A DNA stretch of 64,000 bases from Nitrospira sp. (GTDB taxonomy: Bacteria > Nitrospirota > Nitrospiria > Nitrospirales > Nitrospiraceae), in the NCBI GenBank assembly GCA_024998565.1, contig JACOEM010000012.1:45403-109402 (forward strand), written 5' to 3'. The translations under genes and the position numbers were made by a program. Positions 33,605 through 51,403 of the stretch are shown in pieces. The number at the start of each line of letters is the position of its first letter. Position 1 is the stretch's first letter. The notes beneath the pieces are model-generated. The model ran no database searches. It was not told the DNA's origin and worked only from the letters and a program-made list of their open reading frames with translations.

Positions 33605-33648
33605 TTGATGTCGAGGTGTGCCGAAACAGGACATAAGCCGAGAAGCTG

Positions 33649-34854
33649 ATGCATATCACGAGAAAAAAGACGCGGCAGATTCAAGCGGGATCGGTCAAGA
33701 TCGGCGGAGATGCGCCGATTTCAGTCCAGTCGATGTGCTCGACGGATACACGCGATGTGAACGCCACGGTGGCCCAGATCCGTCAACTGGAAGAGGCCGG
33801 ATGTGAACTCATTCGTGTTGCCGTCCCTGATGACGAGGCGGCAGCGGCGCTTCCCCAGATCAAAGCCGCGATGACGGTTCCGCTGATCGCCGACATTCAC
33901 TTCGACCACCGCTTAGCCCTCAAGGCGGCGGAGGTGGTGGATTGCGTCCGCATCAATCCGGGCAACATCGGGGCCTGGTGGAAGGTGCAGGAAGTCATCA
34001 AGGCCGTCAACGAGCGGGGCATTCCCTTGCGCGTGGGCGTCAATGGCGGCTCGCTCGAACGTCCGCTGTTGGACAAGTATGGCTGGCCCTCTCCCGAAGC
34101 CCTGTCGGAGTCGGCGTTGAACGCCGTCCATGCCTTGGAAGACGAGGGCTTCACCAATATGAAGGTGTCGCTCAAGGCTTCCGACGTGCACCATGCCATC
34201 GATGCCTACTATTTGTTCTCCACCCAGGCCAATTATCCCCTGCATATCGGAATCACAGAAGCCGGTACGGCCATGACGGGCGCGGTGAAGTCCGCGATCG
34301 GCCTTGGCTGGCTCCTGTCGCAAGGGATCGGTGATACCCTCCGAGTCTCATTGGCGGCGGATCCGGTGGAGGAAGTCAAAGTCGGGTTCGAGATCCTCAA
34401 GTCGCTGGAGTTGCGCCATCGCGGCATCAACGTGATTGCCTGCCCGACCTGCGGCCGGGTTGAGATCGATGTGGTGCGCATGGCGAATGAACTGGAAAAG
34501 AAGCTCAGCCATATCAAGACGCCGCTGAACGTCTCCGTGCTCGGCTGTGTCGTGAACGGCATCGGGGAAGGCAAGGAAGCGGATATCGGTATCGCCGGCG
34601 GGGAAGGCAAGGGTATCCTCTTCAAGAAGGGCAAGTTGATGCGGAAAGTGCCGCTTGAAGAACTCATGGACACGCTGATCCACGAGGTTGAGTTACTGGC
34701 CAAGGAAAAAGAAGCCGAGGCCGCCGGCGTGACTCACGAAACGGCAGCATCGTCAGATGGGCAGGCGGAGCCTGGGTGGGAATTGATCGGCCATGCGCCG
34801 GATGAACATTCGACTATCGTCCGCGATATTCCTGTGCTTCCTACCAAGCGGTAA
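33649..34854 (+). CDS. ispG: (E)-4-hydroxy-3-methylbut-2-enyl-diphosphate synthase
   Basis: ADIHFD, RINPGN, HIGITEAG, CPTCGR, GCVVNGIGE. Confidence 0.98.
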   Translation: MHITRKKTRQIQAGSVKIGGDAPISVQSMCSTDTRDVNATVAQIRQLEEAGCELIRVAVPDDEAAAALPQIKAAMTVPLIADIHFDHRLALKAAEVVDCVRINPGNIGAWWKVQEVIKAVNERGIPLRVGVNGGSLERPLLDKYGWPSPEALSESALNAVHALEDEGFTNMKVSLKASDVHHAIDAYYLFSTQANYPLHIGITEAGTAMTGAVKSAIGLGWLLSQGIGDTLRVSLAADPVEEVKVGFEILKSLELRHRGINVIACPTCGRVEIDVVRMANELEKKLSHIKTPLNVSVLGCVVNGIGEGKEADIGIAGGEGKGILFKKGKLMRKVPLEELMDTLIHEVELLAKEKEAEAAGVTHETAASSDGQAEPGWELIGHAPDEHSTIVRDIPVLPTKR

Positions 34855-34914
34855 GCCGCCGATTTCCAGGCCAACAGTGTCGTCCCAACTGCTCGACTAG
34901 GGCCGTTTTGCCGG

Positions 34915-34944
34915 TTGTGTTCCAGCCCTGCTCCCTTCTATAAT
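34915..34944 (+). promoter_or_regulatory. Candidate tRNA promoter
   Basis: TTGTGT-18nt-TATAAT ending 10 nt before the tRNA. Confidence 0.55.
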
Positions 34945-34954
34945 CACCCCCCGT

Positions 34955-35030
34955 GGCGCCGTACCCAAGTGGCTAAGGGAGCAGTCTGCAAAACTGCGAT
35001 GCGGCGGTTCGAACCCGCCCGGCGCCTCCA
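34955..35030 (+). tRNA. tRNA-Cys (GCA)
   Basis: Acceptor GGCGCCG/CGGCGCC, anticodon stem GCAGT/ACTGC with loop CTGCAAA, T arm GGTTCGAAC, discriminator T + CCA. Confidence 0.97.
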
Positions 35031-36175
35031 ATCATTCCTGCAGATATCTCAGAGGGTTCGGTGATTCTGACCGGACCCTGTTCCACCCGCTGATTTTCGT
35101 TACTCCCGGTTTTACTCCCGGTTCCACTCGCACTTTTCGACGCAATCGCTCCTAAACTCGCTCGATTTACCGCCGTTCGCAGATGGGCCGGGGAGAGATG
35201 GGCGTAGCGCATTGTCATCGTGATCGTGGAATGGCCCATCAGTTCCTGCACTGTCCTGATATCCACTCCTGCCATGACAGCCCGAGACGCGAAGGTATGC
35301 CGTAAGGTGTGCCAGGTGACATCTTCGATTTTAGCTCGCTTCAAGGCTGGCTCGTAGATCTTCACCACAAAGTTGCGCCCCTGCATCGGTTGTGCGGAGG
35401 TAAGAGGACTCGGGAACAGGAATGGGCTGTGCATCCACGAGGTGAGACCCTTGACGATGTCCAGCGCGGCATCCGTCAGAATGACGTGGCGGGTCTTGCC
35501 GGACTTACTCAATGGAATGGTCAAGATGCCCTGTTCGGTGTTCAGGCAGTCCCAGCGCGAATGAAACTGCTCGGTGAGGCGTAACCCTGTTTCGAGAGCG
35601 AAGGCCACAATCAACCAGTGCTCTGGAGGCAAGGTATCGCGCAGGCTGGAGATTTCTCTATCACTAAGGAACCGTAGTCGCCCGGCTGGTTCTGAAAAGA
35701 ACTTCACGCCTTTGACTGGATTGGCCGAAAGCAAACCATCGGCAATCGCCAAGTTCAGGATGCGTCGCAGGGCTCCAAAGTAGCGGTTAATCGTTCGGGC
35801 GGTTCGTGTGCCCTTGTGCTTCATTTTGGCTTGGATATGCCGTAAGTCGTCGGCGGTAATCTCGGTCAGAAGCTTCCGTCCTAGGAGCTTCGACCAGAAC
35901 TTTCCATAGCGATGCACATTCCGAAGACCTGGTGAAGTCACGCCTTCCAGATACCGCGCAATCCATGCCCGGAGGGTCAATTCCTTGGAGACGGCATACT
36001 TCTCGGGAAAGTAGCGATTTTCGCGAGCCTCGGACCGCAACCGACCGTACAGTGTCTTGGCTTGGCTCTTGGAGTCCGCCCGGAACCATTTCTCCCGGCC
36101 ATTCACATACAGGCGGACCCACCAACCGCCTTGCTTAAACACCACCCCACGGTCTTTACCGTTTCGCCTTGCCAT
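34973..36175 (-). CDS. int: Tyrosine recombinase/integrase
   Basis: N-terminal arm-binding-like domain, TGLRLTE (R), SKSGK (K), HTLRH, LMGHS, RYAH (Y); stop lies inside the tRNA. Confidence 0.95.
   Translation of the reverse strand: MARRNGKDRGVVFKQGGWWVRLYVNGREKWFRADSKSQAKTLYGRLRSEARENRYFPEKYAVSKELTLRAWIARYLEGVTSPGLRNVHRYGKFWSKLLGRKLLTEITADDLRHIQAKMKHKGTRTARTINRYFGALRRILNLAIADGLLSANPVKGVKFFSEPAGRLRFLSDREISSLRDTLPPEHWLIVAFALETGLRLTEQFHSRWDCLNTEQGILTIPLSKSGKTRHVILTDAALDIVKGLTSWMHSPFLFPSPLTSAQPMQGRNFVVKIYEPALKRAKIEDVTWHTLRHTFASRAVMAGVDIRTVQELMGHSTITMTMRYAHLSPAHLRTAVNRASLGAIASKSASGTGSKTGSNENQRVEQGPVRITEPSEISAGMIGGAGRVRTAASQFCRLLP
35100..35135 (+). repeat. 12-bp-period tandem repeats (TTACTCCCGGTT x2 plus a degenerate unit), probable integrase arm sites
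   Basis: Read directly; same motif occurs near the other att copies. Confidence 0.7.
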
Positions 36176-36872
36176 CGGGCTTTCCCTTTCGGTTTTTCAT
36201 GTCGGAATCCGCCGTTGTGCCAGTCCTACCTACTGAGGCTTTTTGTTTCTTCGGTAGATGTTTCTCTCGCCATTTACGAGTGGCCACTCGTGTCTGGCAC
36301 CGAGGACCGCAGTATGTTTGATCAAACCGAATCGCTAAGTAAATCCGTTGGCATTCTGGGCAACGGCGAATTCGCCCGGAATAGTCGACCAATAAATGGG
36401 CGAACCGATATTCAAACTCCTTCACTTTTCGCTTTGTGGCAACAAACACATTCCCTTTTCGTTCGTGGTCCGCGCCAGGCAGTGTGACAATGATGGTGAA
36501 TTGAGGGAACGTGAAGGCAGTCACTGCCTTTTCCCATAAGTTTTCCAGGCTGTGGAGGACCATGGTCTGAACCTCCTTGGCCTCTGCGCTGCTTGGAATA
36601 GTGCCACGAAACCTCTCTCCTGGGATAGATTGGACGCTCCACCCTCCTTCTGTCGCGATTTCCTCCCCATGGCGATTCGCGACGTCATCCACAAAGCTGG
36701 CCACCTCGAAAGCCAGGACCATCCATTCACTTGGCGTGAGAGCTTCTAGGTCGGTCTGGATAAACTTCAAGAGCCAGCCGACTTCGCCGTCTGCTGTGGT
36801 GAGAATCCGCTCTCTGGCCTTCTTCATCTCGCCGTAGAACTGCTCAAAAATTGCGGCACGGTCTATGGTCAT
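36156..36872 (-). CDS. Hypothetical protein with C-terminal CGNR-like zinc finger
   Basis: RRCPECQRIY...TYCGPRCQTRVATRKWR; GGAGAGG RBS; stop overlaps int start. Confidence 0.65.
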   Translation of the reverse strand: MTIDRAAIFEQFYGEMKKARERILTTADGEVGWLLKFIQTDLEALTPSEWMVLAFEVASFVDDVANRHGEEIATEGGWSVQSIPGERFRGTIPSSAEAKEVQTMVLHSLENLWEKAVTAFTFPQFTIIVTLPGADHERKGNVFVATKRKVKEFEYRFAHLLVDYSGRIRRCPECQRIYLAIRFDQTYCGPRCQTRVATRKWREKHLPKKQKASVGRTGTTADSDMKNRKGKPDGKAKR

Positions 36873-37015
36873 CTGACCTCTCCTTCTGTAGCTGGCTTCG
36901 GCAGCTTCATCACTCCACCCCATTTCATATGAAAAAACTGGAGGTGAACGAGGCACCTTGGGACTGAAAACTCTTGGGGAGTGTACCTCGTCAATGGTAA
37001 TGCATGTCAATGAGC

Positions 37016-37043
37016 GTTATGCCTAATAAGTATTAGGCATAAC
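37016..37043. promoter_or_regulatory. Perfect 13-bp inverted repeat (operator-like) between divergent genes
   Basis: GTTATGCCTAATA-AG-TATTAGGCATAAC. Confidence 0.65.
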
Positions 37044-37077
37044 AGAAATGATTCACTCATTACCAAGGAGGTGCCCG

Positions 37078-37287
37078 ATGGTCCCGAGTACAAAATTGAT
37101 CACCATTCGAGAAGCGGCAAATCGGTTAGGGCTCAAGGAAAGCACGATCAGGAAATACATCCTGAAACGGCAGATCGCCTATGTGAAGCCGTCGGTGCGC
37201 GCCGTACGGATTCCCATCGAAGAACTCGAACGGATTCTGTCTGCCGGCCTCAGACCTGCCATCCCTCAAGCGGAAGGTGCCCGATGA
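37078..37287 (+). CDS. Excisionase-like helix-turn-helix protein (HTH_17/MerR-like)
   Basis: LITIREAANRLGLKESTIRKYI...VRIP pattern; AAGGAGG RBS. Confidence 0.8.
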   Translation: MVPSTKLITIREAANRLGLKESTIRKYILKRQIAYVKPSVRAVRIPIEELERILSAGLRPAIPQAEGAR

Positions 37288-37997
37288 GCCGCTGGAAGGA
37301 GTTCCGGCGGGAGCCCGTCGCCGGGGAATGGACGCGAAAGCAGAAACGAGGCTATCACCGCGTCCGGTCGCTGCTTTGGTTCTGGGAATGCCACCAGTTC
37401 CAGGTGCTCTGGGTCACGCTCTCCACGGCAGAAGGCGGGGATGCGGAGAAGCTGACCTACCATCATAAACAACTGCGTCAGCGGATCGAACGCCAGCTCG
37501 GCTTTCAGGGGTTGGAGTATTACCAGGTCCGGACTGAGGAAGGGCATGGCGTCCTCCATATCTTCTGGGCCTGGCGGGTGCCGGACGGGGAGCGCGCCCG
37601 CCGCTTCTGGATCTCTCAGGAATGGCTTTCCTCCCAGTGGCAAGCCCTCCACGGGGCTCCGGTGGTCTGGATCAAGGCCTATCAGCCTAGCCATCGTTCA
37701 CGAAACCGTCTCAGCCGCTATGTCATCAGCCAGTACGTCCAGGATCAATGTGGCTACGTGAATATGTGTTGGTCCTGGAAGCGGTCGCTGGGCTTTCCCA
37801 TCAGCCGACTGTGGGAGGAGATGCGGCATCAATGGTCGACCAGGAATGCCTACCGACGGATCAGAGGCGAGATTGAAATCCCGAGGATCGTTTTCATCAA
37901 GACCTGGGAGGATCTGCTGTCAGGGCATCCCATTTGGTTTAGCGGCACCATTCTGCAACTCGTGCTGGGGAAGGGGCTTGTCTATCAGGAGGTGTGA
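37284..37997 (+). CDS. Putative rolling-circle Rep-like protein (atypical HUH motifs)
   Basis: WVTLST (motif I-like), EEGHGVLHIF (motif II-like), RYVISQY (motif III-like); ATGA overlap with xis stop. Confidence 0.5.
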   Translation: MSRWKEFRREPVAGEWTRKQKRGYHRVRSLLWFWECHQFQVLWVTLSTAEGGDAEKLTYHHKQLRQRIERQLGFQGLEYYQVRTEEGHGVLHIFWAWRVPDGERARRFWISQEWLSSQWQALHGAPVVWIKAYQPSHRSRNRLSRYVISQYVQDQCGYVNMCWSWKRSLGFPISRLWEEMRHQWSTRNAYRRIRGEIEIPRIVFIKTWEDLLSGHPIWFSGTILQLVLGKGLVYQEV

Positions 37998-37999
37998 GG

Positions 38000-38227
38000 A
38001 TGATCTGGCATCGATGCGATCTGAAGCTGCCGAGTCTATTTGGGCCGGCAGGTTGCAGACGGGAAGCCACCACGTATGATCGTGCGCGCAAAGCCTGTCT
38101 CTGTTCTGAGCATACGAAGGAACGGCTCTGCGAGTTTTGCCAATTTGAACGGGCGTGGGTGCGGTTTTGTTATAGGGAGCATGACGTCACATGCGAAATC
38201 TGGCTCTGTATCGACTGTGCGGGCTGA
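38000..38227 (+). CDS. Small Cys-rich hypothetical protein
   Basis: 75 aa with 10 Cys including CLC, CEFC, CIDC; AGGAGG RBS; abuts rep stop. Confidence 0.5.
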   Translation: MIWHRCDLKLPSLFGPAGCRREATTYDRARKACLCSEHTKERLCEFCQFERAWVRFCYREHDVTCEIWLCIDCAG

Positions 38228-38366
38228 CCACTCGTAGTCTCGATTCTTAAAATTCTCGGCTACCGCCACATGGAATATTCGCTCGATTAAACCAGGCCTT
38301 GGCATTGAAAGCGGACATTTCCTCAGCATGCCAGGATTTTTTCAGTTGGGTCTATAATCTATGGCT

Positions 38367-38394
38367 GTGATGAATTTGTGACGGACGCTATGCT
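38367..38394 (+). promoter_or_regulatory. OmpR-type direct repeat and -10-like hexamer upstream of response regulator
   Basis: GTGA at 38367 and 38378 (11-bp period), TATGCT at 38389. Confidence 0.5.
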
Positions 38395-38420
38395 AAAGGC
38401 ATTCCTGCTGCCTCGAATAT

Positions 38421-39149
38421 ATGGTTTTTATGGCTAAACAAATTCTTGTCGTAGAAGACGACTTAGATATTGGTCGGCTCTTGGAGATGCACCTGACCGA
38501 CACCGCATATGCCGTAGAGATCGCCAAAACCGGAGAGGATGGCCTTCAATGTGTGCTCTCGAAGAGATATGACCTTATTATTCTTGACGTGATGCTGCCT
38601 GGCATCGACGGGTTAGAGATATGTCGGCAGCTTCGATCGCTCCCCACCTATACACCCATCCTCATGTTGACTGCGAAATCCTCAGAAATAGACCGGGTCC
38701 TTGGGCTGGAAGTTGGTGCTGACGACTATGTTACTAAACCATTTAGTGTTCGAGAACTGCTCGCACGTGTAAAGGCCCTCTTCCGCCGTTCTGAAGCATT
38801 TAGAGATAAGACGCAGGACCTTCAGAAAACTATCCGCGCAAAGGGCCTCTTCATCGATGTTGAAAAACGGAAGGTCACAGTGAGAGGCAGCTTGAGGGAT
38901 CTCACGGCCAAAGAGTTCGATTTGCTCCTGCAGTTTGCATCCCATCCAGGCCGAGTTTATACGCGCAGTCAGCTTCTCGATTCGGTCTGGGGTTACGGTC
39001 ACGACGGCTATGAACACACGGTAAATTCCCATATCAACAGATTGCGCGCCAAGATTGAAAAGGATTCGGCCAAGCCCGACTTTATTCTGACTGTGTGGGG
39101 CGTCGGATACAAATTCTGTGAACTAGAAGGATCCGGCTTAAAGGACTGA
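38421..39149 (+). CDS. OmpR-family response regulator
   Basis: DLIILDVMLPG, LTAK, KPF, HTVNSHINRLRAKIE. Confidence 0.93.
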   Translation: MVFMAKQILVVEDDLDIGRLLEMHLTDTAYAVEIAKTGEDGLQCVLSKRYDLIILDVMLPGIDGLEICRQLRSLPTYTPILMLTAKSSEIDRVLGLEVGADDYVTKPFSVRELLARVKALFRRSEAFRDKTQDLQKTIRAKGLFIDVEKRKVTVRGSLRDLTAKEFDLLLQFASHPGRVYTRSQLLDSVWGYGHDGYEHTVNSHINRLRAKIEKDSAKPDFILTVWGVGYKFCELEGSGLKD

Positions 39150-39151
39150 CC

Positions 39152-40630
39152 ATGTCGCGGTCACTCTACGGCAAACTCGCCCTTGTGTTGCTCTTCCTGT
39201 TTTGTGCGGTTGGGGTTCTATACACTCTCCTAACGGTCTTCACGACGCGCATGTATCAGCAGGAAGTGAATCAGAAGCTGAACCGTGCTCTGGCCAGAAA
39301 CATTGTTGCTGACCAGTTACTAAGCAGCCAAGGAGAGGTGAGTCCGTACGCTCTGAAAGAACTGTTTCACCTACTTATGGTTATCAATCCGAGCATTGAG
39401 ATGTACTTGCTTGATGAGAATGGGGGCATAGTCAACTTCTCCGCTCCCACTGAGAAGGTCAAGCGCTCGGCTGTCTCGTTAGAACCAATACATCGTTTTC
39501 TCACCGAGGCGGACGCATTTCCTATTCTTGGTGACGATCCCCGTGATGCGACTCGCCAGAAGGTCTTTTCTGTTTCAGCCATACCCTTACACGGACAACC
39601 AACAGGATATCTGTACATTGTCCTTGGCGGAGAGGAGTATGACTCCGTCGCCGATATGCTGAATCGGAGCTACATCTTCCGGCTGAGTCTCTGGGCAGCA
39701 CTTACCGGCTTACTGTTCGCTCTTTTGGGCGGTCTCTTTCTATTCAACATGCTCACCAGAAGGTTAACCAAACTAGCATCGACGATGGAAACGTTCGCAA
39801 AGAGCGATTTTTCAGAGGCGCTCGAGCTGCATCCTCAGGATTTCATTCCTGAGCGGAATAGTGATGAAATTGATCGGCTCCGGTCCACATTCAATCGGAT
39901 GGTAGAACGAATTCTTCAGCAAGTGGCCACTTTGAAGCAGACGGACATCCTTCGGCGTGAGTTGGTGGCCAATGTGTCCCATGATTTGCGTACCCCCCTG
40001 GCATCCTTGCATGGGTATCTGGAAACGTTACTGATGAAAGAAGGGACGCTTACACGAGAGGAATACCGGACGTTTCTCGACATTGCCCTCAAGCAAAGCC
40101 AACGGCTTAGGGAGCTTGTGGGGGAACTCTTTGAATTGGCTCGCTTAGATTCGCGTGAAGCTCGCATTCAATGCGAACAATTTTCTTTAGCCGAGCTTGT
40201 CCAGGATGTGTGTCAAAAGTTTCAACTCACCGTCGCAAATAGGGGGATAGCCCTAAAGAGCAGTTTTACAGATGATCTGCCATTTGTGGAGGCTGATATC
40301 GGCCTCATCGAGCGGGCGCTAGAAAACATAATCAATAATGCTACTCGCTATACACCGAGCGGAGGGACCATTGCGATTTCGTTAAGCCACGAATCCGGCT
40401 CGGTTATGATACGAATTTCTGATACTGGCTGTGGTATCGCTGATCACGACTTGCCTTATATTTTTGATCGTTTTTATAGGGCGAATCGACAAAATCAGCC
40501 TGGAGGAGCTGGGCTCGGGCTGGCCATTACTAAGCGAATCCTAGAGCTACATGGAAGTACAATTCGAGCAGAGAGTATACCTAACATCGGAACCATCATC
40601 AGCTTTGAACTGCCCACCGTGCACTTCTAG
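39152..40630 (+). CDS. Sensor histidine kinase (periplasmic sensor-HAMP-HisKA-HATPase)
   Basis: Two TM helices, NVSHDLRTPL, ENIINNA, DTGCGI, GAGLGL. Confidence 0.93.
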   Translation: MSRSLYGKLALVLLFLFCAVGVLYTLLTVFTTRMYQQEVNQKLNRALARNIVADQLLSSQGEVSPYALKELFHLLMVINPSIEMYLLDENGGIVNFSAPTEKVKRSAVSLEPIHRFLTEADAFPILGDDPRDATRQKVFSVSAIPLHGQPTGYLYIVLGGEEYDSVADMLNRSYIFRLSLWAALTGLLFALLGGLFLFNMLTRRLTKLASTMETFAKSDFSEALELHPQDFIPERNSDEIDRLRSTFNRMVERILQQVATLKQTDILRRELVANVSHDLRTPLASLHGYLETLLMKEGTLTREEYRTFLDIALKQSQRLRELVGELFELARLDSREARIQCEQFSLAELVQDVCQKFQLTVANRGIALKSSFTDDLPFVEADIGLIERALENIINNATRYTPSGGTIAISLSHESGSVMIRISDTGCGIADHDLPYIFDRFYRANRQNQPGGAGLGLAITKRILELHGSTIRAESIPNIGTIISFELPTVHF

Positions 40631-40674
40631 TCTCTATTGTTCTCGACCGTTACGGGCCGCTCGCCACATCAGGC

Positions 40675-40728
40675 GTGATAAAAATGTGACAATTTCGTGA
40701 GATCGATGTGAAGGGGCAGGGCTATGCT
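40675..40728 (+). promoter_or_regulatory. Four GTGA direct repeats at 11-bp period upstream of cld
   Basis: GTGA at 40675, 40686, 40697, 40708; TATGCT at 40723. Confidence 0.6.
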
Positions 40729-40781
40729 TGACCATGCATTGGGTTGTACCAGCCCTTTTAACCGAAAAGGAGAACGGACTT

Positions 40782-41576
40782 ATGAAGAGAATCAGTCAGA
40801 TTTCGATGGTTGCGCTTCTATTATGCTTCCTTCCCATGTTGTCTGTAGTGAGTGAGGCGGCCATGGATCACGACAAGCTCTTAAAGGATCCTGGTGTCTA
40901 CGCAACGTTTGCTGTGTTCAAGATGGGGGAGCACTGGTGGCAGATGGATCATGAAGCGCGTGTCAAGGCGGCCTCCGAAATGAAAAAGGTGTTCGAAAAG
41001 CACGCCGATAAGTTAATAGTCGATACGCATTTGCTTCGTGGTCTGTCTGAGAGAGCTGATGTACTTGTCAGGATTCACTCGAAAGAGATGGTTCATAATC
41101 AGAACTTCTTGTTAGACCTCATGGGGACCACTATGGGGATGGATATGAAAAATACTGACACCTTCAATGGCATCACCAAAACCCTAAATTATGTCCCTAG
41201 CTTCCCAGAAGAACTGAAGGGGGAGTTGAAGACACCGCCACCTCAGGGCAGCCCATACGTTATAGTGGTTCCTATACGCAAGGACGCAGAATGGTGGATT
41301 TCTGGACAAGACACCCGAACAGGCCTGATGAAGGAACACACGGATGCGACGGTCGCATACTTGAAGACGGTGAAACGGAAGCTCTATCACTCCAGCGGGT
41401 TGGATGATTGGGATTTTATTACCTACTTTGAAACATCCAAGCTGGATGATTTCAACAATCTTGTGACTGGATTGCTCAAGGTCAAGGAGAACCGTCATAA
41501 TAGGCGTTTCGGTGATCCTCTCCTGTTGGGGACCATTCGACCATTGGATGAAATCCTCGATATTCTCAGTCGCTAG
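40782..41576 (+). CDS. cld: Chlorite dismutase (long/clade 1 type, exported)
   Basis: Signal peptide; PIRKDAEWW, proximal EHT, distal Arg in KTVKRKLYHS, DFITYFET, KVKENRHNRRFG, matching the recalled Nitrospira defluvii Cld layout; 264 aa. Confidence 0.88.
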   Translation: MKRISQISMVALLLCFLPMLSVVSEAAMDHDKLLKDPGVYATFAVFKMGEHWWQMDHEARVKAASEMKKVFEKHADKLIVDTHLLRGLSERADVLVRIHSKEMVHNQNFLLDLMGTTMGMDMKNTDTFNGITKTLNYVPSFPEELKGELKTPPPQGSPYVIVVPIRKDAEWWISGQDTRTGLMKEHTDATVAYLKTVKRKLYHSSGLDDWDFITYFETSKLDDFNNLVTGLLKVKENRHNRRFGDPLLLGTIRPLDEILDILSR

Positions 41577-41605
41577 TCTATTTCGCTCGCGCGTTCCAGA
41601 ACACG

Positions 41606-41636
41606 GTGACCACCTGGGAACAGGTGGTCACTTCTA
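41606..41636 (+). terminator. Hairpin after cld
   Basis: GTGACCACCTG-GGAA-CAGGTGGTCAC perfect 11-bp stem. Confidence 0.6.
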
Positions 41637-41695
41637 TGCTGGTACTCACAAATCTTTACTTCTAATACTTAGTTATAGGCTCTATATCCGCCCCA

Positions 41696-41972
41696 CCCTG
41701 TCACCACCTGTTGGCTTCTCAGGGGGTGAGAGGGAGGAAATGCAGGGTTATTTTCAAGTGGTGACGGCGATGCGCTAGCTTGGCCGTCCCCTTGGTGAAT
41801 TAGTGGCCATGCAGAGTTGAGATGAAGACTTTGTCTGCCCAGGATTATCAACTAGACGCGAAATATGCTGACCACGAAGGCCCGCCGGCCGCTCCGGACT
41901 GCCGGGGCCGGACGGCCGGGGGGCTCGGGGGCGCAGCCCCCGCTTCACTTGATCTATATGGTCAAAGTAGGA
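41696..41972 (+). repeat. Origin-like module copy A (hairpins + 95-bp repeat)
   Basis: Homologous to 43920-44194; 95-bp core 41878-41972 matches copy B at 84/95, last 48 bp identical. Confidence 0.8.
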
Positions 41973-42173
41973 CGACCCTTCCTTTGGGTTCTCAGGCGGA
42001 AGCCTAACTTTTGGGCGGGAGGATTCAGTTTCAAGGAAGCGCTCGCCGATTGCCTAAAGATTTTGCGCGAGCCTCTGAGGAACCTCGAAATGTCGATCTA
42101 ATGAGGTTATATTTCGATAATCTTTAATGCAGAGGGGTGCCGGAAAGGCAAAGGCTGAACGAAAAAAGGATCC

Positions 42174-43403
42174 ATGAGAATTAAACTAAAAAAAGGGACG
42201 CCTCAGTGGTTCAAGTGGAAACTTAGTTTCTTAGGTGAGCCCGCTCCGATTAATCCGATGGCACTGTTTGCTGGAAACATGTGGAGTTACTTCGATCCTG
42301 GATCTCCAAATGAAAGATATGAAAATTTCATACGGAACGGCCGGCATCCTCTATCGACCTTTTTGGATAGCATGCTTCTGTATGACAAGGTTATTGTCCC
42401 AACTCATGACTTCATGTCGGTTGTTATTTTGATAAGTGTTTTTGGAGAAGATGGCGTTGCAGAGCTGATTGAAAATAATGCAGTTAGTTTTGTACGTGTG
42501 AAAGGGGCACTTGCGTACATAGGGAACGGGGGTGGCCTTGCATCATACGACATTCTTCACGACCAAACTCGCCCTGTAGATCAATTTGCGGATGATGATT
42601 CAACCTTGGAGTGGGCCCTGAATGGGCTCAGTACGAAGCCGAGAAGGGTGAACTTAAGTAGGATGATCCTTGAGAACACCCAAACATTCCCGATGGAGAA
42701 GATGGTTTCTCTGATCCGCGAGGAGTCCTACAAGGATATTTTAGATGGCCCATATTTAAGGACTGCTTTTAGCCTCAGGAATACCAGTCTTGATCATTTG
42801 TTTGGTGTTGAGCCCAATCAATTTAGGTGTGGGGAAATTCAGACTTTCGAAGAGCGAGATGAAATTGATTCCGTTCTTAGAATCGCCCGCGCCAATCTAG
42901 AAATGTTGCTTGCATTACAGACTGGTTGCACGGATACAGCTACTGGAACGCCTGTTGGTCACGTATTGAAGGCGAAACAGCAGCGAGGCAGTGCTAGATC
43001 TAGTCCTTTTGAGAGATTTGGATCCCTGAAAGAAATTACAGAAGTTCCCGATATCGCGAGTTATGTAATAGATGCTTCGATTCCAGATAGACCAGCACGC
43101 CTGCATGACATTTTGATTAAGCGAGGGACTAGAGATGCTGTTCAATTTAGAGCGTGGTTTCATGAAAAGTGTCGTGACAGTCCTCACGTAATTGCCAAGG
43201 AATACGGGAGATTAATGCATGATATTCCATTTGTTTCGACTCACAAAGGCAAGACTTTGCGTCTTTTGGCTACGACAATGGCGGGAGTGTATGACCCCGC
43301 TCTGGGCTTGGTAACCTCCATCGCAGACAGCTTTCTTGTAGATCTTGTGCGGAAACGAAACCCGAAGTATTTTATTGAGGATCTACGGCAAATTAATAAT
43401 TAA
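42174..43403 (+). CDS. Hypothetical protein (AT-rich cargo; start uncertain)
   Basis: 409-aa ORF, no recognisable motif, AT-richer than core genes. Confidence 0.7.
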   Translation: MRIKLKKGTPQWFKWKLSFLGEPAPINPMALFAGNMWSYFDPGSPNERYENFIRNGRHPLSTFLDSMLLYDKVIVPTHDFMSVVILISVFGEDGVAELIENNAVSFVRVKGALAYIGNGGGLASYDILHDQTRPVDQFADDDSTLEWALNGLSTKPRRVNLSRMILENTQTFPMEKMVSLIREESYKDILDGPYLRTAFSLRNTSLDHLFGVEPNQFRCGEIQTFEERDEIDSVLRIARANLEMLLALQTGCTDTATGTPVGHVLKAKQQRGSARSSPFERFGSLKEITEVPDIASYVIDASIPDRPARLHDILIKRGTRDAVQFRAWFHEKCRDSPHVIAKEYGRLMHDIPFVSTHKGKTLRLLATTMAGVYDPALGLVTSIADSFLVDLVRKRNPKYFIEDLRQINN

Positions 43404-43479
43404 TTAGTATGTTGGTTTTGACGGGCAGTGTTATTGGGAACTGATTCGCTTCCCACCAATCTACGGCAACGTACAAACC

Positions 43480-43527
43480 CTGATCCCGGTTTTAGTCCCG
43501 GTTCCACTCCCGATTTTGCTCCCGGTT
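43480..43527 (+). repeat. Four tandem 12-bp units (xxxxTCCCGGTT), probable arm sites at the right end of element 1
   Basis: CTGATCCCGGTT TTAGTCCCGGTT CCACTCCCGATT TTGCTCCCGGTT. Confidence 0.75.
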
Positions 43528-43646
43528 GGGAGTCCTCTTTAGTCGTAAATGGGCACCAATAAAATGTCGTAACACCTTGTTATTTAATGGCCTTACTCTC
43601 TGTCTGTCGCTGTTGATCTTCATGGGTCGTAGAGCCCTCGGGCAAG

Positions 43647-43691
43647 CTGCAAAACTGCGATGCGGCGGTTCGAACCCGCCCGGCGCCTCCA
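43647..43691 (+). repeat. att copy 2: 45-bp duplicate of tRNA-Cys 3' half
   Basis: Identical to 34986-35030; starts exactly at the first base of the anticodon loop. Confidence 0.95.
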
Positions 43692-43919
43692 TACCCTGCT
43701 TGCTCGATCCGGATCCCTTACGATTGTTCTTGGCGACGGAATAAGCACCTCCCTGGCATTCCGGGTAATTTTTCCTGACTAGGCCCCGCCCCTCGTCATT
43801 CCCCTTGCTCCCGGTTTTACTCCCGGTGCGGTTCAGACTTTCACGGCGATCCCTTTCAACCGGCTCTATTGCACGGGACTCACGTGATGGCGATAAGGCT
43901 GAGCCGAGCTGATCAATTT

Positions 43920-44194
43920 CTCCCTGTCACCAGTCTTTTATCCGTGACGAGTGACAGGGAGCTATACCCCTTCCTCATGCCAGGCGGCGAAGCGTCAGCT
44001 TGGCCGTCGGTCTGTTCCATCGTTCGCGACAAACAATGAAAGAAGAAACCGAAGTTGAGACCATCGGAATGCTTACGAGTGCGGACGTTCCGCCCAACGA
44101 GGCCCGCCGGCCGCTTCGGGTCCTGCGGACCGGACGGCCGAGGGGATCGGGGGCGCAGCCCCCGCTTCACTTGATCTATATGGTCAAAGTAGGA
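43920..44194 (+). repeat. Origin-like module copy B
   Basis: 11-bp IR CTCCCTGTCAC/GTGACAGGGAG, 23-mer GGCGAAGCGTCAGCTTGGCCGTC, 95-bp core 44100-44194. Confidence 0.8.
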
Positions 44195-44263
44195 TGGCCG
44201 AATTGCCGAAAAAGTGAGCTTGAAGTAGTATCGTTTAACACTTCGCTTGAGCGAAATTCTCCA

Positions 44264-44608
44264 ATGGACATTACCGGTGCAAGCCCAGGAAGATTTGAAT
44301 TAGGAATACGGCTATTCCTTGAGGGGCAGGCTGTTCTCTACAACGAGGTCGTTTTTTGGAAAGATGGGGACAAAGCCTTGCATGTGAATAGCTACTCCGA
44401 CTGGAACTGCGAAAATACGACTCCTGACATGGCACGACAAAAAATTGAGAGGTCTAAGGCAGTCTTAGAAGAACTTTCCGAGAAGAGCAATGAATTCTCG
44501 GAAGTAGCTAATCGGTTGCCGCATGCACACTATTTTTGTCATGACTGTGGAAACGCGGGCATAGTTTTAGCCAAAGAATTAAACGGTGAGTTCACCTGGC
44601 TGTGCTAG
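44264..44608 (+). CDS. Small hypothetical protein (immunity-protein-like size and composition)
   Basis: 114 aa from MDITGASP; the upstream part of the tracked ORF runs through the origin repeat and is probably non-coding. Confidence 0.55.
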   Translation: MDITGASPGRFELGIRLFLEGQAVLYNEVVFWKDGDKALHVNSYSDWNCENTTPDMARQKIERSKAVLEELSEKSNEFSEVANRLPHAHYFCHDCGNAGIVLAKELNGEFTWLC

Positions 44609-45020
44609 AGCCATGCAATTATATCCTAGGCTTCTTGGACAAAGATCTTAGGCTGATCTCAGCAGTTCAAATTTCAGCGTCCGACACGGATACAGTCCGT
44701 TGAGCAATTTGGACGCCATACATACTTTTTCATTCTTCGAGGGCTAACGCTCGAAGCCTTGGTCACCACAGCAGGAATAGGTTTAAACGGTATCCTTAGA
44801 CGCGTAAACCTCCTGTCGCAACCATAGATCTCTTACCTGAGCACAGCATTCCGGTAGCGGCGAAAACTACGCCCCCTACGTCTGCGGGCTTTTGAATAAA
44901 GAATTCCGCAGATACCATCCAATCTTTGCCATTGCTGGTTCAAGTTGTGACGGGTTCTTCTTTCCACTAAGCACTCTGCCACCGCTAGTGACATGTGCCT
45001 TAACCAGAGGGAGAAATGGT

Positions 45021-45536
45021 GTGAACAACGAATTTGTTCAGGTCTGTGTTGACGATGGCACCATCGCAGCCGGAGATCCGTGGGAAGTCATGGAGCCGGT
45101 TTTGTGGTCAGCTAATATCTATGATGGGCCAGAGCAATACGAAATAAGTCTGTCAGGATTTTCGATTCCCCAGCGCCTTGTCTACGCCTTGATGTGGTAC
45201 CGCATTGAAGTCAACAATGGCGGCCACGATCAATTCTATTTCAACTCAACTGGAATAGTGTGGAAGGACGCCTTGAACGCGTTCGAGGCGCTGGAGCTCC
45301 CCGAGTTCGCCAATATCCTCAGAGGGTCGACGGAACGGCTGGGTGGATCGCCTTCGCTTGATCGTCAGGCGCGTAACGAACAGTTAGAATCGATTGAGCC
45401 AGACTTCGACGATCTAGACGAGGCGTTTTACGAGGCCGAGAAAAGAATGGACCTTGATCATCGGATCATGAGTTTCATACGTGCACGACCTTCAGCTTTT
45501 TATTTTGTTGGAGAAGTTAGGAAACCTGCGGACTGA
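45021..45536 (+). CDS. DMP19/DUF4375-family protein
   Basis: EVNNGGHDQFYFNSTG signature, very acidic (FDDLDEAFYE); GTG start behind GAGGGAG. Confidence 0.75.
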   Translation: MNNEFVQVCVDDGTIAAGDPWEVMEPVLWSANIYDGPEQYEISLSGFSIPQRLVYALMWYRIEVNNGGHDQFYFNSTGIVWKDALNAFEALELPEFANILRGSTERLGGSPSLDRQARNEQLESIEPDFDDLDEAFYEAEKRMDLDHRIMSFIRARPSAFYFVGEVRKPAD

Positions 45537-45739
45537 GGCGGTTCAGACCGTTTGTACCCTTGAAGATACATTACATTTGAGATGCTCGGCAATTGAGGAC
45601 AGCCTGCAGTAGGCATGGTTAGGCCTTGGTTAGCTGGAATATGTAGCCTCGGTGATCGGTTAGATAGGCCTGCCGGAGACAACCGCCCCTCCTACATCAC
45701 ATTGTATTGATTGCAACAGCTCTGACCTCGTGAGGGTAT

Positions 45740-46159
45740 ATGCCCTGGTGTATATCATTCCAAATCTATGGTGAAGAATTTCATCCTAGTCGGGTTCCGT
45801 TCCAATTCACTAAGCAACACGACCCTGGCATTATCGGACGCAGAGGACGTTACCGCGGGCGACCAGTTCTCTATGGGTCTGCATCCTATGAAGTTCCTTC
45901 TTCAATTCCAAATATTGACAGGATCAGGCATGTGGTTGAAACCTTTGAGCCTCTATTGGGCGATATTCGCGCTGCAGGTGCTACAGAGTGGCATATTGAT
46001 ATCTGTCGTTATTTCAACGCCCAGTGCAATGAAGCTTATTCACTCGACGATTTGCTATTGATCGCTCGGCTTCAGTGTGGATTCTGGTATTCAGCCTACA
46101 GTGTCTCGAAGAAAGAAGAGAAGAGATTGCAACGGGAATTGGGAGGATTTCGGCCATGA
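45740..46159 (+). CDS. Small hypothetical protein, weakly DUF4279-like
   Basis: FQIYGEEFHP...G pattern; GAGGG RBS; family call tentative. Confidence 0.5.
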   Translation: MPWCISFQIYGEEFHPSRVPFQFTKQHDPGIIGRRGRYRGRPVLYGSASYEVPSSIPNIDRIRHVVETFEPLLGDIRAAGATEWHIDICRYFNAQCNEAYSLDDLLLIARLQCGFWYSAYSVSKKEEKRLQRELGGFRP

Positions 46160-46538
46160 GTTACCCGTTGCCGAAAAGGTAATAAGCGAAGCCCCATTCG
46201 TGGCCTCCCGCTGGGCTCACTAGAAACATGAGTTCCATTGAGATTGAAGGCTCCGATGCTGGCCTGACTCAGCGGCACTAAGCGGATGCTGAATGATAGG
46301 AAATACTTCTAGACATTTGAACCGGTGGCGTCCGATTCGGAGACAGGCCGTTGAGGTGTTCTGCCTTTCGAAACAGTTACGTCGGCGTACAAACCCTGGT
46401 CCCGGTTTTGCTCGCGGTTGGGAATCCGCTTCGGTGGCAAATGGGCACAAGGAAAAGTTGTTAAGCTATTACGCTTCTTGATTATTCTTTTCTGTCGATC
46501 GCTGTTGATCATCATCTGTCTTACGGCCATCGGGCAAG

Positions 46539-46550
46539 CTGCAAAACTGC
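46539..46550 (+). repeat. att copy 3 (5' part only: CTGCAAAACTGC)
   Basis: Preceded by CGGGCAAG as at copy 2; homology to the tRNA stops after ACTGC. Confidence 0.75.
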
Positions 46551-46731
46551 ACTGTAGGAAAATAAAACGGGGGAACCTTCGCCATACACACCGCTAGTAG
46601 CCGACACCCGCCGAACATGCAATGCGTGCGTCCTTATCAAACAGTCCTTTAGCATTTTACTTATCGCGGCAACCAGCGTTGGTTCATGCTAGTCTGCAGC
46701 ATAGCAGACGACCTTCTACCTGAGAGGACTC

Positions 46732-48477
46732 ATGGCCCCTGAACCTATTTTTTTTCGAGATCTCGCGTATGTCTTTATCGCTGCGGTCCTAGGCGGGGCC
46801 TCCGCCTATCTGCTTCGTCAACCGTTGATTCTGGGCTATGTCTTCGGCGGCATTCTGATCGGCCCCTTTACCCCTGGTCCCTCTATTTCGGATGTCCATA
46901 GTTTCGAATTGTTCGCCGAGATTGGCGTGATCCTCTTGATGTTCTGCATCGGGATCGAATTTTCCTTAAATGATTTGTTACGAGTTCGGTGGGTCGCCCT
47001 GCTGGGAGGGCCACTCGGCATTTTCCTCTCCATTCTCCTCGCTGTCGGTCTGAGCCATGTTGTGGGATGGAGTTGGATTCAAAGCGTGGTGATCGGGTCG
47101 GTGGTGTCCGTGGCGAGCACGATGGTTCTGGCGCGCTTGCTGCTGGACAGTGGAGATTTGCGTGCCAAGCATGGCCGGGTGATGATCGGGATCACACTCG
47201 TGGAAGATCTGGCGGTGGTTGTGCTCACCGTCCTGCTTCCGGCGCTCGGTGCTCTGGAACCAGGCCGCTTTGCCACGATTGGAAAGGCCTTGTGGCTCGC
47301 GGTCCTCATCCTGGTTCCCTTCGCCTATCTCGCGGCGAAAGCCATTCCTCCGTTGTTGACACGCATTGCGAAGACACAAAATGCCGAACTCTTTCTGCTG
47401 GTAGCGTTGTCTATAGGAATCGGCACGGCAGCCGTCACACAGATGGCGGGGTTGTCCCTGGCGCTCGGCGCGTTTCTGGCAGGATTGATCATCAGCGGCT
47501 CAGAATATGGTCACGAAACCTTAGCCCGCCTCCTGTCGCTCCGTGACGCTTTCGTGGCTCTGTTTTTTGTGACGATCGGTGTCCTCATCGATCCGCGCGT
47601 GGTGTGGGCCAATCTCCCGTTGCTCGGCCTCATGCTCGGATTGATTATCGTGGGGAAATTCGTCATTTGGACGCTGGTCGTGAGGCTGTTTCGTTATGCT
47701 TGGGGCACCGCCCTGCTCGTGGGCGTCGGTCTCACGCAGATTGGCGAATTTTCTTTCGTGTTGGTTCAGGTCGCTAAAACGGCGGGACATGTGAGCGAGG
47801 ATGTGTATAATGCCACCCTGGCCGCTTCGCTGCTGAGCATTCTCCTCAACGCGCCCCTCGTTCGGTATGCGCCTGGGTGGATCGCTGCATTACATTTTAA
47901 AATGGGACGAGTGTCCTTGCCCATTCAAGGCGGGATTTCTGACGAGCAAGCCGGGCATGTGGTGCTGTGTGGGTTCGGTCGCATGGGCAGTGCGGTGGGA
48001 CTCGCCCTCGATCATTTTGAGCTTCCGTACACCGTGATTGAGCGCGACCCGGACATCGTTCGACAGTTGCGCCGACGCGGAATTTCCTGCGTCTACGGGG
48101 ATGCCTCGCAAACTGAGCTGTTGAAAGCGGCCGGTGCCCAACATGCGGCGTTGGTGATCGTGGCGCTTCCGGTCATTCACGAGACGTCGCTTACCGTTCG
48201 ACGATTTCGGGGGCTGAACGAAAAAATTCCCCTTCTCGCCCGAGCGCATGGCTTTAGGGAGGCTGAGGACCTGAAGGAGGTGGGAGCGACGGAAGTTATC
48301 CTGCCCGAGGTCGAGGGGGCACATACCTTGATCCGACACGCCTTCCAGGCCTTGAAGGTCTCGAAGTCGAGCATCCTCGATTATCTTAAGTCCTGCCAAG
48401 CGTTTCGATCGTCCGGTGAGGGACCTGATTCAGGGAACGTGGAGGCCGGGAAGGCTGGCGCTGGGCGAAGTACGTGA
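46732..48477 (+). CDS. CPA2 cation:proton antiporter with TrkA-N/KTN domain (Kef/YbaL-like)
   Basis: IGVILLMFCIG, SVASTMV, EDLAVV, GAFLAG, QIGEFSFV, CGFGRMG, YGDAS. Confidence 0.9.
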   Translation: MAPEPIFFRDLAYVFIAAVLGGASAYLLRQPLILGYVFGGILIGPFTPGPSISDVHSFELFAEIGVILLMFCIGIEFSLNDLLRVRWVALLGGPLGIFLSILLAVGLSHVVGWSWIQSVVIGSVVSVASTMVLARLLLDSGDLRAKHGRVMIGITLVEDLAVVVLTVLLPALGALEPGRFATIGKALWLAVLILVPFAYLAAKAIPPLLTRIAKTQNAELFLLVALSIGIGTAAVTQMAGLSLALGAFLAGLIISGSEYGHETLARLLSLRDAFVALFFVTIGVLIDPRVVWANLPLLGLMLGLIIVGKFVIWTLVVRLFRYAWGTALLVGVGLTQIGEFSFVLVQVAKTAGHVSEDVYNATLAASLLSILLNAPLVRYAPGWIAALHFKMGRVSLPIQGGISDEQAGHVVLCGFGRMGSAVGLALDHFELPYTVIERDPDIVRQLRRRGISCVYGDASQTELLKAAGAQHAALVIVALPVIHETSLTVRRFRGLNEKIPLLARAHGFREAEDLKEVGATEVILPEVEGAHTLIRHAFQALKVSKSSILDYLKSCQAFRSSGEGPDSGNVEAGKAGAGRST

Positions 48478-48512
48478 ATGTCTGAATTAACTGCGGCGTC
48501 ATCCAATCTCTT

Positions 48513-48550
48513 ACTGCGATGCCGCGGTTCGAACCCGCCCGGCGCTTCCA
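48513..48550 (+). repeat. att copy 4 (3' part, 2 mismatches to tRNA-Cys)
   Basis: ACTGCGATGCCGCGGTTCGAACCCGCCCGGCGCTTCCA, 36/38 identical to 34993-35030. Confidence 0.85.
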
Positions 48551-48667
48551 AACAGAGCTTGCTCGACCCGGAGCCTTTACGATTGTTCTTGGTGCCGGGA
48601 TAACCTAGTCATCACCTTCTCGTTCATTCTGTTTCTGCCTGCCGGCAGCCCGTGCTGATACCGGCGT

Positions 48668-49156
48668 TCAGCGGCTCACCTCGGCAATTCGCCGTTCTTG
48701 TTCTTTTAGTTTCCGACTTGCGGCAAGGGTGTCCGGATCCAGCAGGCCATGGAGAATCTCCTGTCTCAGTTGCATGAACAGCGGCTCGTGCCTGACGGAT
48801 GCGGGCTGACCGCCTTGCAGCAGGGTGAGCCAGCGAGTGCTGGAGGCGGCATAGCGGCCGTTCGGCACGGTGGTGCGCAATTCTTGGAAGGCGTGGATCG
48901 CATCCTCGCGGTTCTCAAATAACGCGACCAGGCCCCTGAGGTACGTCACCTCTTCACAGCTGGCGTTCTGCTGGCAATTCGCCCGCCGCGCTTCCTGGGT
49001 TCGGCTCACCACCTGCAATGCCTCTCGCTCTTTTACATCGGTCTCAAAAAAAGCGCTGCTCGGCAGCGTGACAAACGGCCCCGCACCGGCACAACCAAAG
49101 AAGCCGCTGATGAGCAGTACCCAGAGTGAACTGTGCGCAACGTTTCTTCCATTCAT
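48668..49156 (-). CDS. Hypothetical lipoprotein (helical/TPR-like)
   Basis: Lipobox-like FFG-C after hydrophobic stretch; helical body. Confidence 0.6.
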   Translation of the reverse strand: MNGRNVAHSSLWVLLISGFFGCAGAGPFVTLPSSAFFETDVKEREALQVVSRTQEARRANCQQNASCEEVTYLRGLVALFENREDAIHAFQELRTTVPNGRYAASSTRWLTLLQGGQPASVRHEPLFMQLRQEILHGLLDPDTLAASRKLKEQERRIAEVSR

Positions 49157-51372: not shown

Positions 51373-51403
51373 GGTGATTTAGGGAATGAGTGGCGCGCAG
51401 GGT

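Follow-up and report, generated by a model that had tools for sequence, protein, structure and literature searches.

Probable serial integration at the tRNA-Cys gene of a Nitrospira genome and a recently mobile element with a pRQ7-type Rep

Introduction

It is known that RepSA of the actinomycete element pSAM2 is a rolling-circle Rep, and the Rep of the Thermotoga plasmid pRQ7 has been used for vectors in Thermotoga. According to the passage of PMC3398313 that cites Yu and Noll (1997), pRQ7 replicates by rolling circle. Integrative mobilizable elements (IMEs) with relaxases of the rolling-circle-initiator type have been described too, as has their tandem accretion with relics that are mobilizable in cis (PMC5704250). 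Here we analyse the tRNA-Cys locus of Nitrospira sp. (assembly GCA_024998565.1, contig JACOEM010000012.1, forward-strand positions 45,403 to 109,402), where the tRNA gene is followed by a complete-looking integrative element (element 1), an integrase-less relative (element 2) and a segment with a Kef-type antiporter gene. The whole stretch of 64,000 nucleotides is called the window; positions refer to it, features lie on its forward strand unless noted, and the loci and contigs used for comparison carry L numbers. An earlier note, made from the sequence alone, had described this array as one autonomous helper with defective members mobilised in trans.

Results

ARAGORN and Rfam find a single tRNA gene in the 64-kb window, tRNA-Cys(GCA) at 34955-35030, which repeat comparison identifies as the left attachment site (attL) of element 1. 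Its core consists of GCAGT (34981-34985), CTGCAAA (34986-34992) and ACTGC (34993-34997), and the first base of the anticodon loop begins a 45-nt repeat that extends to the CCA (34986-35030) and recurs exactly at 43647-43691. The offset between both copies is 8,661 bp, which is the length of element 1 (35031-43646 plus one repeat). The 12-mer CTGCAAAACTGC is found again at 46539-46550, at an offset of 2,892 bp from copy 2 and with diverging sequence after it, and the tRNA 3' part from ACTGC to CCA is present at 48513-48550 with 2 mismatches. The 12-mer has 4 matches versus 0.29 expected from shuffled sequence, and a 20-mer of the T-arm region has 3 versus 0.02. Thus, the repeats of the tRNA-Cys 3' half that had been reported at 34986, 43647, 46539 and 48513 are real and far above chance, with the last two being partial copies.

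The second attachment (att) copy (43642-43691) joins GCAAG-CTGCAAA-ACTGC to the tRNA 3' part and represents both the right site (attR) of element 1 and the attL of element 2. In copy 3 (46534-46550), the whole anticodon stem-loop equivalent GCAAG-CTGCAAA-ACTGC is kept and no tRNA 3' sequence follows; this site is an old scar whose counterparts in sister lineages are degenerate. The fourth, a relic at 48482-48603, has the degenerate CTGAATTAACTGC alone at 48482-48494, the tRNA 3' part without anticodon loop, and a 53-nt stretch sharing 87% identity with the left end of element 2. The right ends of elements 1 and 2 are 83% identical (43462-43503 versus 46378-46419) and their arm ends 85% (43599-43658 versus 46491-46550). 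Seven of the 13 YCCCGGTT sites in the window fall within the four arm regions of both elements, all on the forward strand. The GC content drops from 58-60% to 46-53% across approximately 38-47 kb and returns to 58-60% over the Kef gene. We read the tRNA-Cys locus as a site of serial site-specific integration and tandem accretion.

Next to these repeats, the distribution of element 1 among hosts is informative. Window positions 35031-40175 are 100.00% identical in four loci whose adjacent dxs-ispG genes are only 83.0% (L156), 95.2% (L157), 80.2% (L158) and 92.5% (L160) identical to those of the window; L157 is Nitrospira strain ND1, a pure culture (FWEX01000006; strain identity from PMC5767232). 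In L142 and L143, 36174-43702 is 99.95-99.99% identical, and homology ends at 43695-43702, which is the end of attR. The locus free of element 1 was found in two samples: in L138 and L140, 34444-35030 is joined straight to 43647-48320 with 99.6-99.8% identity, so that the tRNA-Cys gene, with GCAGT on the left and the element 2 flank on the right, is directly followed by element 2, while five contigs from the same study (L133-L137) bear the junction between elements 1 and 2. L079 and L142 form a second pair of empty and occupied sites, with identical flanks, and at least five different right-hand contexts follow copies of element 1. Since a fully identical element is found in hosts with 80-95% dxs-ispG identity, and its presence and absence are exact at the att sites, element 1 is considered currently mobile. 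These comparisons show that it has recently spread between Nitrospira species, and we regard it as an active integrative element, in agreement with its earlier description as an autonomous, helper-like integrative element insofar as it looks autonomous and moves. Six short-read Logan contigs that stop in the tRNA were not counted as evidence, since a stop about 30 nt into the repeat is what is expected of a k-mer repeat break.

The backbone of element 1 begins with a gene for a tyrosine integrase of 400 aa, a length also found in public records, on the reverse strand (34973-36175; PF00589, E 9e-30; phrog_1, E 2e-67). Its reading frame ends within the tRNA gene (34973-35030), and because the last codons span the att site, the final few would change upon excision. 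The P' arm contains the arm-type repeats ACTCCCGGTTTTACTCCCGGTT at 35093-35136, a motif also found in both arms of the tRNA-Arg(TCT) elements. The P arm (43473-43646) has YCCCGGTT at 43484, 43496 and 43520, one degenerate copy and the arm end at 43599-43646. A crossover predicted in the anticodon loop, a tRNA 3' half supplied by the element and arm-type repeats at either end are what is expected for a tRNA-targeting integrase of the lambda type. A backbone gene of 238 aa follows on the reverse strand (36156-36872); its product, found only in Nitrospira, has a C-terminal CxxC...CxxxC motif and no match in Pfam, PHROGs, PADLOC or NCBIfam, and its AlphaFold2 model was poor (predicted local distance difference test, pLDDT, 62), with no credible match in a fold search. 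Next come an excisionase gene of the HTH_17/excise family (37078-37287; PF12728, E 1e-8; TIGR01764, E 8e-9), the rep gene (37284-37997) and a small open reading frame (ORF) of 75 aa (38000-38227), which is kept 3' of rep in all family members. Family searches across the ORFs of the array confirmed that int, xis and the Rep-like gene are present in element 1 only, and PHROGs matches in the array were limited to int and xis.

The product of rep, 237 aa, was assigned by profile and tblastn homology to the pRQ7-type rolling-circle initiator family. It has 85 relatives, almost all from Nitrospira, which lack a Pfam domain; PF23343 (Replication-associated protein ORF2/G2P) was weakly matched by 4 of 28 family members. 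In a tblastn search, the protein retrieved the Rep of the 846-bp Thermotoga plasmids pRKU1/pRQ7 (E 7e-6), and hhalign of the family against the pRQ7-type Rep gave a probability of 98.85% (E 4e-17, 169 columns). In this alignment VLWVTLT corresponds to IAFLTLT, H92-I-F94 to H-M-H, and Y146 to the tyrosine of the plasmid RY motif. Invariant residues include E86, H92, H123, Y146, Q150 and Y151, so that a candidate catalytic tyrosine is available in Y146 and a further invariant one in Y151. An AlphaFold model built from 28 sequences (pLDDT 85, predicted TM score 0.81) showed weak, recurring matches in the PDB to Reps of the His-hydrophobic-His (HUH) class, namely SIRV1 ORF119, pMV158 RepB and those of circovirus, geminivirus and adeno-associated virus, while a profile sequence search of the PDB returned nothing meaningful. 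Foldseek gave 65 viral matches at E <= 1e-3, and the two that are named among the 50 listed are Microvirus replication initiators. On this homology, we place the protein in the pRQ7 Rep family as a true homologue of a rolling-circle plasmid Rep, which upholds the link to rolling-circle replication that the earlier note had considered possible. In elements at different tRNA genes with 96-100% identical Rep (among loci L008-L040), the ratio of nonsynonymous to synonymous changes (dN/dS) of rep relative to the window copy is 0.003-0.03 at dS 0.6-0.9, and it is 0.079 for L032, whose Rep is 89% identical. The former values point to unusually strong purifying selection, with a constraint on rep that is far stronger than expected of a mobile-element gene.

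Some 200-500 bp 3' of the small ORF or, as in element 1 (41878-41977), beyond inserted cargo, the elements contain a non-coding module of about 100 nt. It has three hairpins, of which two are GC-rich and the third is small, together with the 29-mer GCTTCACTTGATCTATATGGTCAAAGTAG. Most columns of the 29-mer are the same in all 36 compared copies and the remainder vary in a few; the conserved sequence ends few bases past it in every compared copy. Identity of the module is 84-93% in comparisons in which rep DNA reaches only 72-91%, and the copies of elements 1 and 2 are 93% identical (41905-41977 versus 44127-44199). Hairpin 1 shows compensatory changes at six pairs and hairpin 2 has one extra C-G pair in distant members. 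Folded as single-stranded DNA, the module gave z = -4.2 in element 1 and -2.0 in element 2. No Rfam family matched it, and pRQ7 contains no sequence resembling it. That the module is part of a small protein gene (ORFs 41865-42101 and 44000-44608) was rejected because of single-base indels in a hairpin loop and the compensatory stem changes. From these features, we regard it as a candidate nick site and origin for Rep, and possibly as a transfer origin.

Element 2 has a length of 2,892 bp, lacks int, xis and rep, and has a GC content of about 50% compared to 58-60% in the host. Its left arm (43692-43841) comprises 53 nt shared with 48551-48603 and arm-type repeats at 43798-43841; its P arm (46378-46533) has arm-type repeats at 46400-46419 and the arm end at 46491-46533. 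Between the arms, 43909-44199 corresponds to what lies 3' of the small ORF in full elements; it contains the hairpin module (44100-44199) with a 29-mer identical to that of element 1, and the homology begins exactly at the small-ORF stop codon. Since its arms and module are homologous to those of full elements and the homology sets in at the end of the small ORF, element 2 is a deletion derivative without trans-acting genes. The shared right end, arm repeats and origin-like module described before are thereby corroborated (83-85% identity, YCCCGGTT sites and 93% identity, respectively). An int-less derivative that arose independently was found in L077, where the deletion is equivalent to 35203-38038, and skeletons of elements lie at the same place in L071 and L075 (545 bp) and in L072 (380 bp).

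Genes of element 2 were found in about 170 sample blocks, and in the contigs examined they were always located between att copy 2 and Kef with 97-100% identity. Element 2 is not present in other hosts of element 1, and the element 1 transfers end at their own attR. The proposal that defective members are mobilised in trans therefore finds no support, and on sequence grounds element 2 is better read as a fixed, vertically inherited relic than as a proven satellite. In principle, it could be excised by Int and Xis of element 1. Because att copy 3 at 46534-46550 has a full core without the tRNA 3' part, excision of elements 1 and 2 together, or of 2 and then 1, would be expected to truncate tRNA-Cys and might be lethal, which may be the reason why the relic is kept.

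A scan of one genome per species yielded 63 loci of the family. In Nitrospira, the order tRNA, int, 238-aa gene, xis, rep and small ORF is found next to tRNA-Cys, Gln(TTG), Arg(TCT), Arg(TCG), Asn and Leu genes, with at least 6 copies in the metagenome-assembled genome (MAG) NOB1 and 4 in S2bin.16. Where the downstream copy of the tRNA 3' end was found, elements measure 6.2-9.1 kb, and in those at tRNA-Cys, Gln(TTG), Arg(TCT) and Arg(TCG) the exact repeat always begins at tRNA position 31-33. The elements at these four tRNAs, and some without a detected tRNA, share 84-100% protein identity in Xis and Rep, while their integrases are only 32-52% identical. The Asn/Leu group is more distant: its Rep proteins are 66-87% identical, and Int and Xis were not detected using the window proteins. 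Predicted arm motifs are present in all four arms of elements 1 and 2 and in related elements. The type with a 32%-identical integrase (L013:1-120, L019:1-120) has another arm repeat, GGTCACGGTTTTGGTCACGGTT, at the same position, which is compatible with arm sites specific to each integrase. The notion of a family of small cargo elements therefore holds as to cargo-carrying members of 6-9 kb, seen at several tRNAs, but not as to their mobilisation in trans.

As cargo, element 1 carries genes for an OmpR-type response regulator (38421-39149), a HAMP/HisKA sensor histidine kinase (39152-40630), a chlorite-dismutase family protein (40782-41576; PF06778, E 1.5e-31) and, with a GC content of about 46%, a 409-aa protein without match in Pfam, PHROGs, PADLOC or NCBIfam (42174-43403). 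The chlorite-dismutase protein is a paralogue of the crystallised chlorite dismutase 3NN1 (E 6e-81) and has, by eye, a hydrophobic, signal-peptide-like N-terminus. In element 2, a DMP19/DUF4375 protein of 171 aa (45021-45536; PF14300, E 1e-23) is encoded between a gene call for 114 aa (44264-44608) and a gene for 139 aa (45740-46159), neither of whose products has a match in the same four collections. In elements at tRNA-Asn, the regulator-kinase-chlorite-dismutase set (L047:10973-14558) and chlorite dismutase alone (L048:11204-11911) were found with 71-76% identity, and this cargo block is thus common to backbones with different integrases.

In L039 (14179-14363), an element 1-type left arm follows the attR of a 6.5-kb tRNA-Cys element and continues up to the contig end; this is a tandem of two integrase-bearing elements. 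Short contigs with 97-99% identical Rep are assigned to MAGs labelled Nitrosomonas, Myxococcota, Verrucomicrobiales and Nitrosospira (L013, L014, L019, L022, L031, L043), and one of them, L022, bears a Nitrospira tRNA-Cys flank. These labels look like binning errors, perhaps caused by the odd coverage of a multi-copy element. Distant Rep relatives were found as well: those of Burkholderiales and Rhodocyclaceae (27-42% identity) adjoin an integrase that abuts a tRNA, others are on contigs of Bathyarchaeia (together L054, L056, L057, L065 and L060-L063), and some occur in Verrucomicrobiota. In L166 (1-7605; IMGVR_UViG_3300048561_000084), a tRNA-Arg(TCG) member has as its neighbours a second integrase and genes encoding a major head protein, neck protein, tail assembly chaperone and a small-terminase-like protein.

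The segment between att copy 3 and the fourth relic contains as its sole gene that of a Kef/YbaL-type CPA2 cation:proton antiporter with a TrkA-N domain (46732-48477), which lies outside the element family. It had been counted as a third element, a view that we do not share, since the segment has neither arm sites nor a module, its GC content is host-like, and Kef is a usual neighbour of tRNA-Cys without elements 1 and 2: the order ispG, tRNA-Cys, 360-720 bp and Kef is found in many relatives (L076, L079, L081, L083, L085 and L087). That Kef is simply the ancestral neighbour of tRNA-Cys had to be qualified, since it is absent in L015, L143 and L145. The scar of arm end and core 5' of Kef is degenerate in L071, L073, L075, L076 and L077 and perfect only in the window and L072, and the 53 nt after the post-Kef relic also follow a tRNA or attR elsewhere, e.g., in L126, L072 and L144. 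That the post-Kef copy might be an entire tRNA-Cys gene in decay, which would overlap the Kef 3' end, was left as speculation, given weak similarity and no detection by Rfam.

Between tRNA-Cys and the outer-membrane/lipid A deacylase genes that start at 52401, three segments, K (Kef), A (48513-49479) and B (49634-52300), occur in the combinations K, KA, KB, KAB and B; the locus is therefore an old mosaic. Its Kef gene and its att relics at 46534 and 48482 are earlier components that were passed on vertically. Within 48513-52400, the region of a 178-aa ORF and an operon of carbamoyltransferase and polysaccharide deacetylase vary independently in their presence among relatives. Further downstream, 52401-55242 (beta-barrel, lipid A deacylase) is 70-79% identical in L071 and L075 versus about 94% for the upstream dxs-ispG region (30001-35031), which suggests a fast-evolving or exchanged envelope locus.

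Discussion

The locus as a whole is probably best explained by serial integration at tRNA-Cys, with an active element 1, a relic element 2, and an older Kef gene with att scars. We propose that Int would recombine at the anticodon stem-loop of tRNA-Cys and that element 1 would bring a new tRNA 3' half, by which the tRNA gene would remain intact. The direction of recombination would be governed by the arm-type repeats TCCCGGTT on both sides together with the excisionase. Once the element is excised, its pRQ7-type Rep would most likely nick the three-hairpin module and start rolling-circle replication, and the same nick could supply single-stranded DNA to a transfer route provided by a helper. 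Element 2 is the product of a deletion that removed int, the 238-aa gene, xis, rep and the small ORF, with both cores, both arms and the module kept.

Several observations weigh against parts of this explanation. No contig was found that contains the attP junction of a free circle, all int-bearing contigs being chromosomal or ending in the repeat, and two small contigs, L013 and L019, have att sites at their ends and no terminal overlap. The contigs free of element 1 could show the state before integration and not that after excision. The earlier note had proposed a comparison of the locus across relatives; this revealed a variable locus with element 1 present or absent exactly at the repeat, but not the free attP contig. 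In Rep, the second His of the canonical HUH motif is replaced (H92-I-F94), and with solved Rep structures every match had E > 0.01. Single-His variants are known in other Rep families. As to the transfer route, searches of the ORFs in 34955-48603 against Pfam, PHROGs and NCBIfam found no type IV secretion system (T4SS), FtsK-like TraB or other conjugation domain, coupling protein, relaxase, capsid or terminase, as the earlier note had already remarked for conjugation and capsid genes.

How far element 1 acts on others is a separate matter. Elements 2 and 3, the latter being the Kef segment, could be working non-autonomous satellites that are excised, replicated and spread in trans by Int, Xis and Rep of element 1. 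Element 2 has two complete cores, arm repeats on both sides and the same 29-mer as element 1; two independent deletions, in element 2 and L077, removed all trans-acting genes and spared the cis sites, and its low GC content suggests a foreign origin. Nevertheless, we consider this reading improbable, since element 2 keeps its one position between att copy 2 and Kef in the contigs examined, was never carried along when element 1 moved to other species, and has its counterpart in the 380-545 bp skeletons of sister lineages, which form a pattern of decay, while element 3 has no arms or module and is host-like in GC and syntenic with tRNA-Cys in relatives. A related and more far-reaching idea is that these elements are minimal integrative rolling-circle replicons that would move between Nitrospira without recognisable transfer or packaging genes, either as Rep-made single-stranded circles that are taken up or exported or with a helper, and that the shared, near-invariant Rep and module would enable any resident copy to act in trans on int-less relatives such as element 2, by replicating or mobilising them. 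It is likewise unlikely in our view.

Transfer of element 1 as a phage satellite, packaged in the capsids of a helper phage instead of being plasmid-like or mobilizable, would fit its small size, the int-xis-rep layout and the lack of transfer genes, and the phage structural and small-terminase-like genes beside the tRNA-Arg member in L166 are a possible lead to a helper. However, among about 60 loci a single one had such a cluster, none of the backbones yielded a gene for a terminase, capsid remodelling or packaging, and a set of 50,697 phage records contained no match to Rep, for which a plasmid Rep is the only close homologue in sequence; we therefore give this alternative little credence. 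Finally, degenerate att copies and a downstream mosaic of variable segments might be taken as signs that the repeats arose via segmental duplication or homologous recombination between tRNA-like sequences and not by site-specific integration. This is hardly credible, as the repeat boundary lies at tRNA position 31-33 in four tRNA species, an integrase adjoins each tRNA, presence and absence are exact at the repeat, and hosts with 80% identity share a 100% identical element 1. Serial integration at tRNA-Cys remains the preferred explanation.

Nitrospira are the main nitrite oxidisers of wastewater treatment and soils, and we know of no published genetic system for them. Element 1, with its defined att sites, integrase, excisionase and plasmid-type Rep and its presence in the pure culture ND1, offers a starting point for integration or shuttle vectors. 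Its distribution also shows a rapid horizontal spread of chlorite-dismutase and two-component-system cargo among nitrifiers. The picture of IME accretion with cis-mobilizable elements (CIMEs) is extended to a new phylum and to a Rep family without a database model, and the combination of recent inter-species spread, a pRQ7-type Rep and no visible transfer function makes the family worth following. A literature search found no paper that describes this Nitrospira element family, and the ND1 genome paper (PMC5767232) is silent on it. The family is new, while its kind, accretion of IMEs and CIMEs, is already known.

In comparison with known systems, the earlier note had stated that the array fits no classic pattern. 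This stands for integrative and conjugative elements (ICEs), prophages and phage-inducible chromosomal islands (PICIs), but the array does match IMEs with rolling-circle-initiator-type proteins and accreted CIME relics (PMC5704250). PICIs and other phage satellites resemble element 1 in having int, an excisionase-like gene and a replication module, in their small size and in a transfer that depends on something else, whereas genes for packaging, capsid size or interference are absent from element 1, as is any link to phage records. The Thermotoga miniplasmids pRQ7, pRKU1 and pMC24 (846 bp; PMC3398313) have a homologous Rep (hhalign 98.9%), but are free single-gene plasmids with iterons, another hairpin and no integrase, att site or cargo. 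The pSAM2-type elements of actinomycetes (PMC2440964) have the same int-xis-rep module, insertion in a tRNA gene and a size of about 10 kb; unlike these, which have transfer genes, element 1 lacks FtsK/TraB-like or spread genes, its Rep belongs to an unrelated family, and its host to another phylum.

Element 2 has the structure of a CIME, being att-flanked (43642-43658 and 46534-46550), without int or transfer genes, and derived by deletion. According to what PMC5704250 cites on ICESt1 and the CIME of Streptococcus thermophilus, the same holds there, with att-flanked, deletion-derived relics that lack recombination and transfer genes in tandem with a complete element. For the streptococcal CIMEs, co-excision and co-transfer are given there as demonstrated, whereas in our comparative data element 1 moves alone, being found elsewhere without element 2, and element 2 occurs in this lineage only. 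Element 2 also differs from a CIME in that its right att site is without the tRNA 3' part; composite excision would therefore be expected to truncate tRNA-Cys.

As for element 1, it has its own integrase and excisionase, exact 45-nt direct repeats, and occupied and empty sites, as an IME does. In place of a known relaxase and oriT, it has a rolling-circle-type Rep and a conserved hairpin module, which are putative equivalents, and no T4SS or coupling protein; its conjugative mobilisation is a proposal by analogy. The closest likeness is to the streptococcal IMEs with Rep_trans, Rep_2, PHA00330 or Viral_Rep domains (PMC5704250, PMC5357655), which are also small, have a tyrosine integrase and an excisionase, use the 3' end of a conserved gene, encode a rolling-circle-initiator-like protein with a cis site, carry cargo but no mating-pore genes, and often lie in tandem with decayed elements. 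The Nitrospira family differs from these in its pRQ7-family Rep without a Pfam model, in a host from the Nitrospirota with no coupling protein or helper known, and in that single genomes combine one near-identical Rep and module with integrases that target six tRNA genes.

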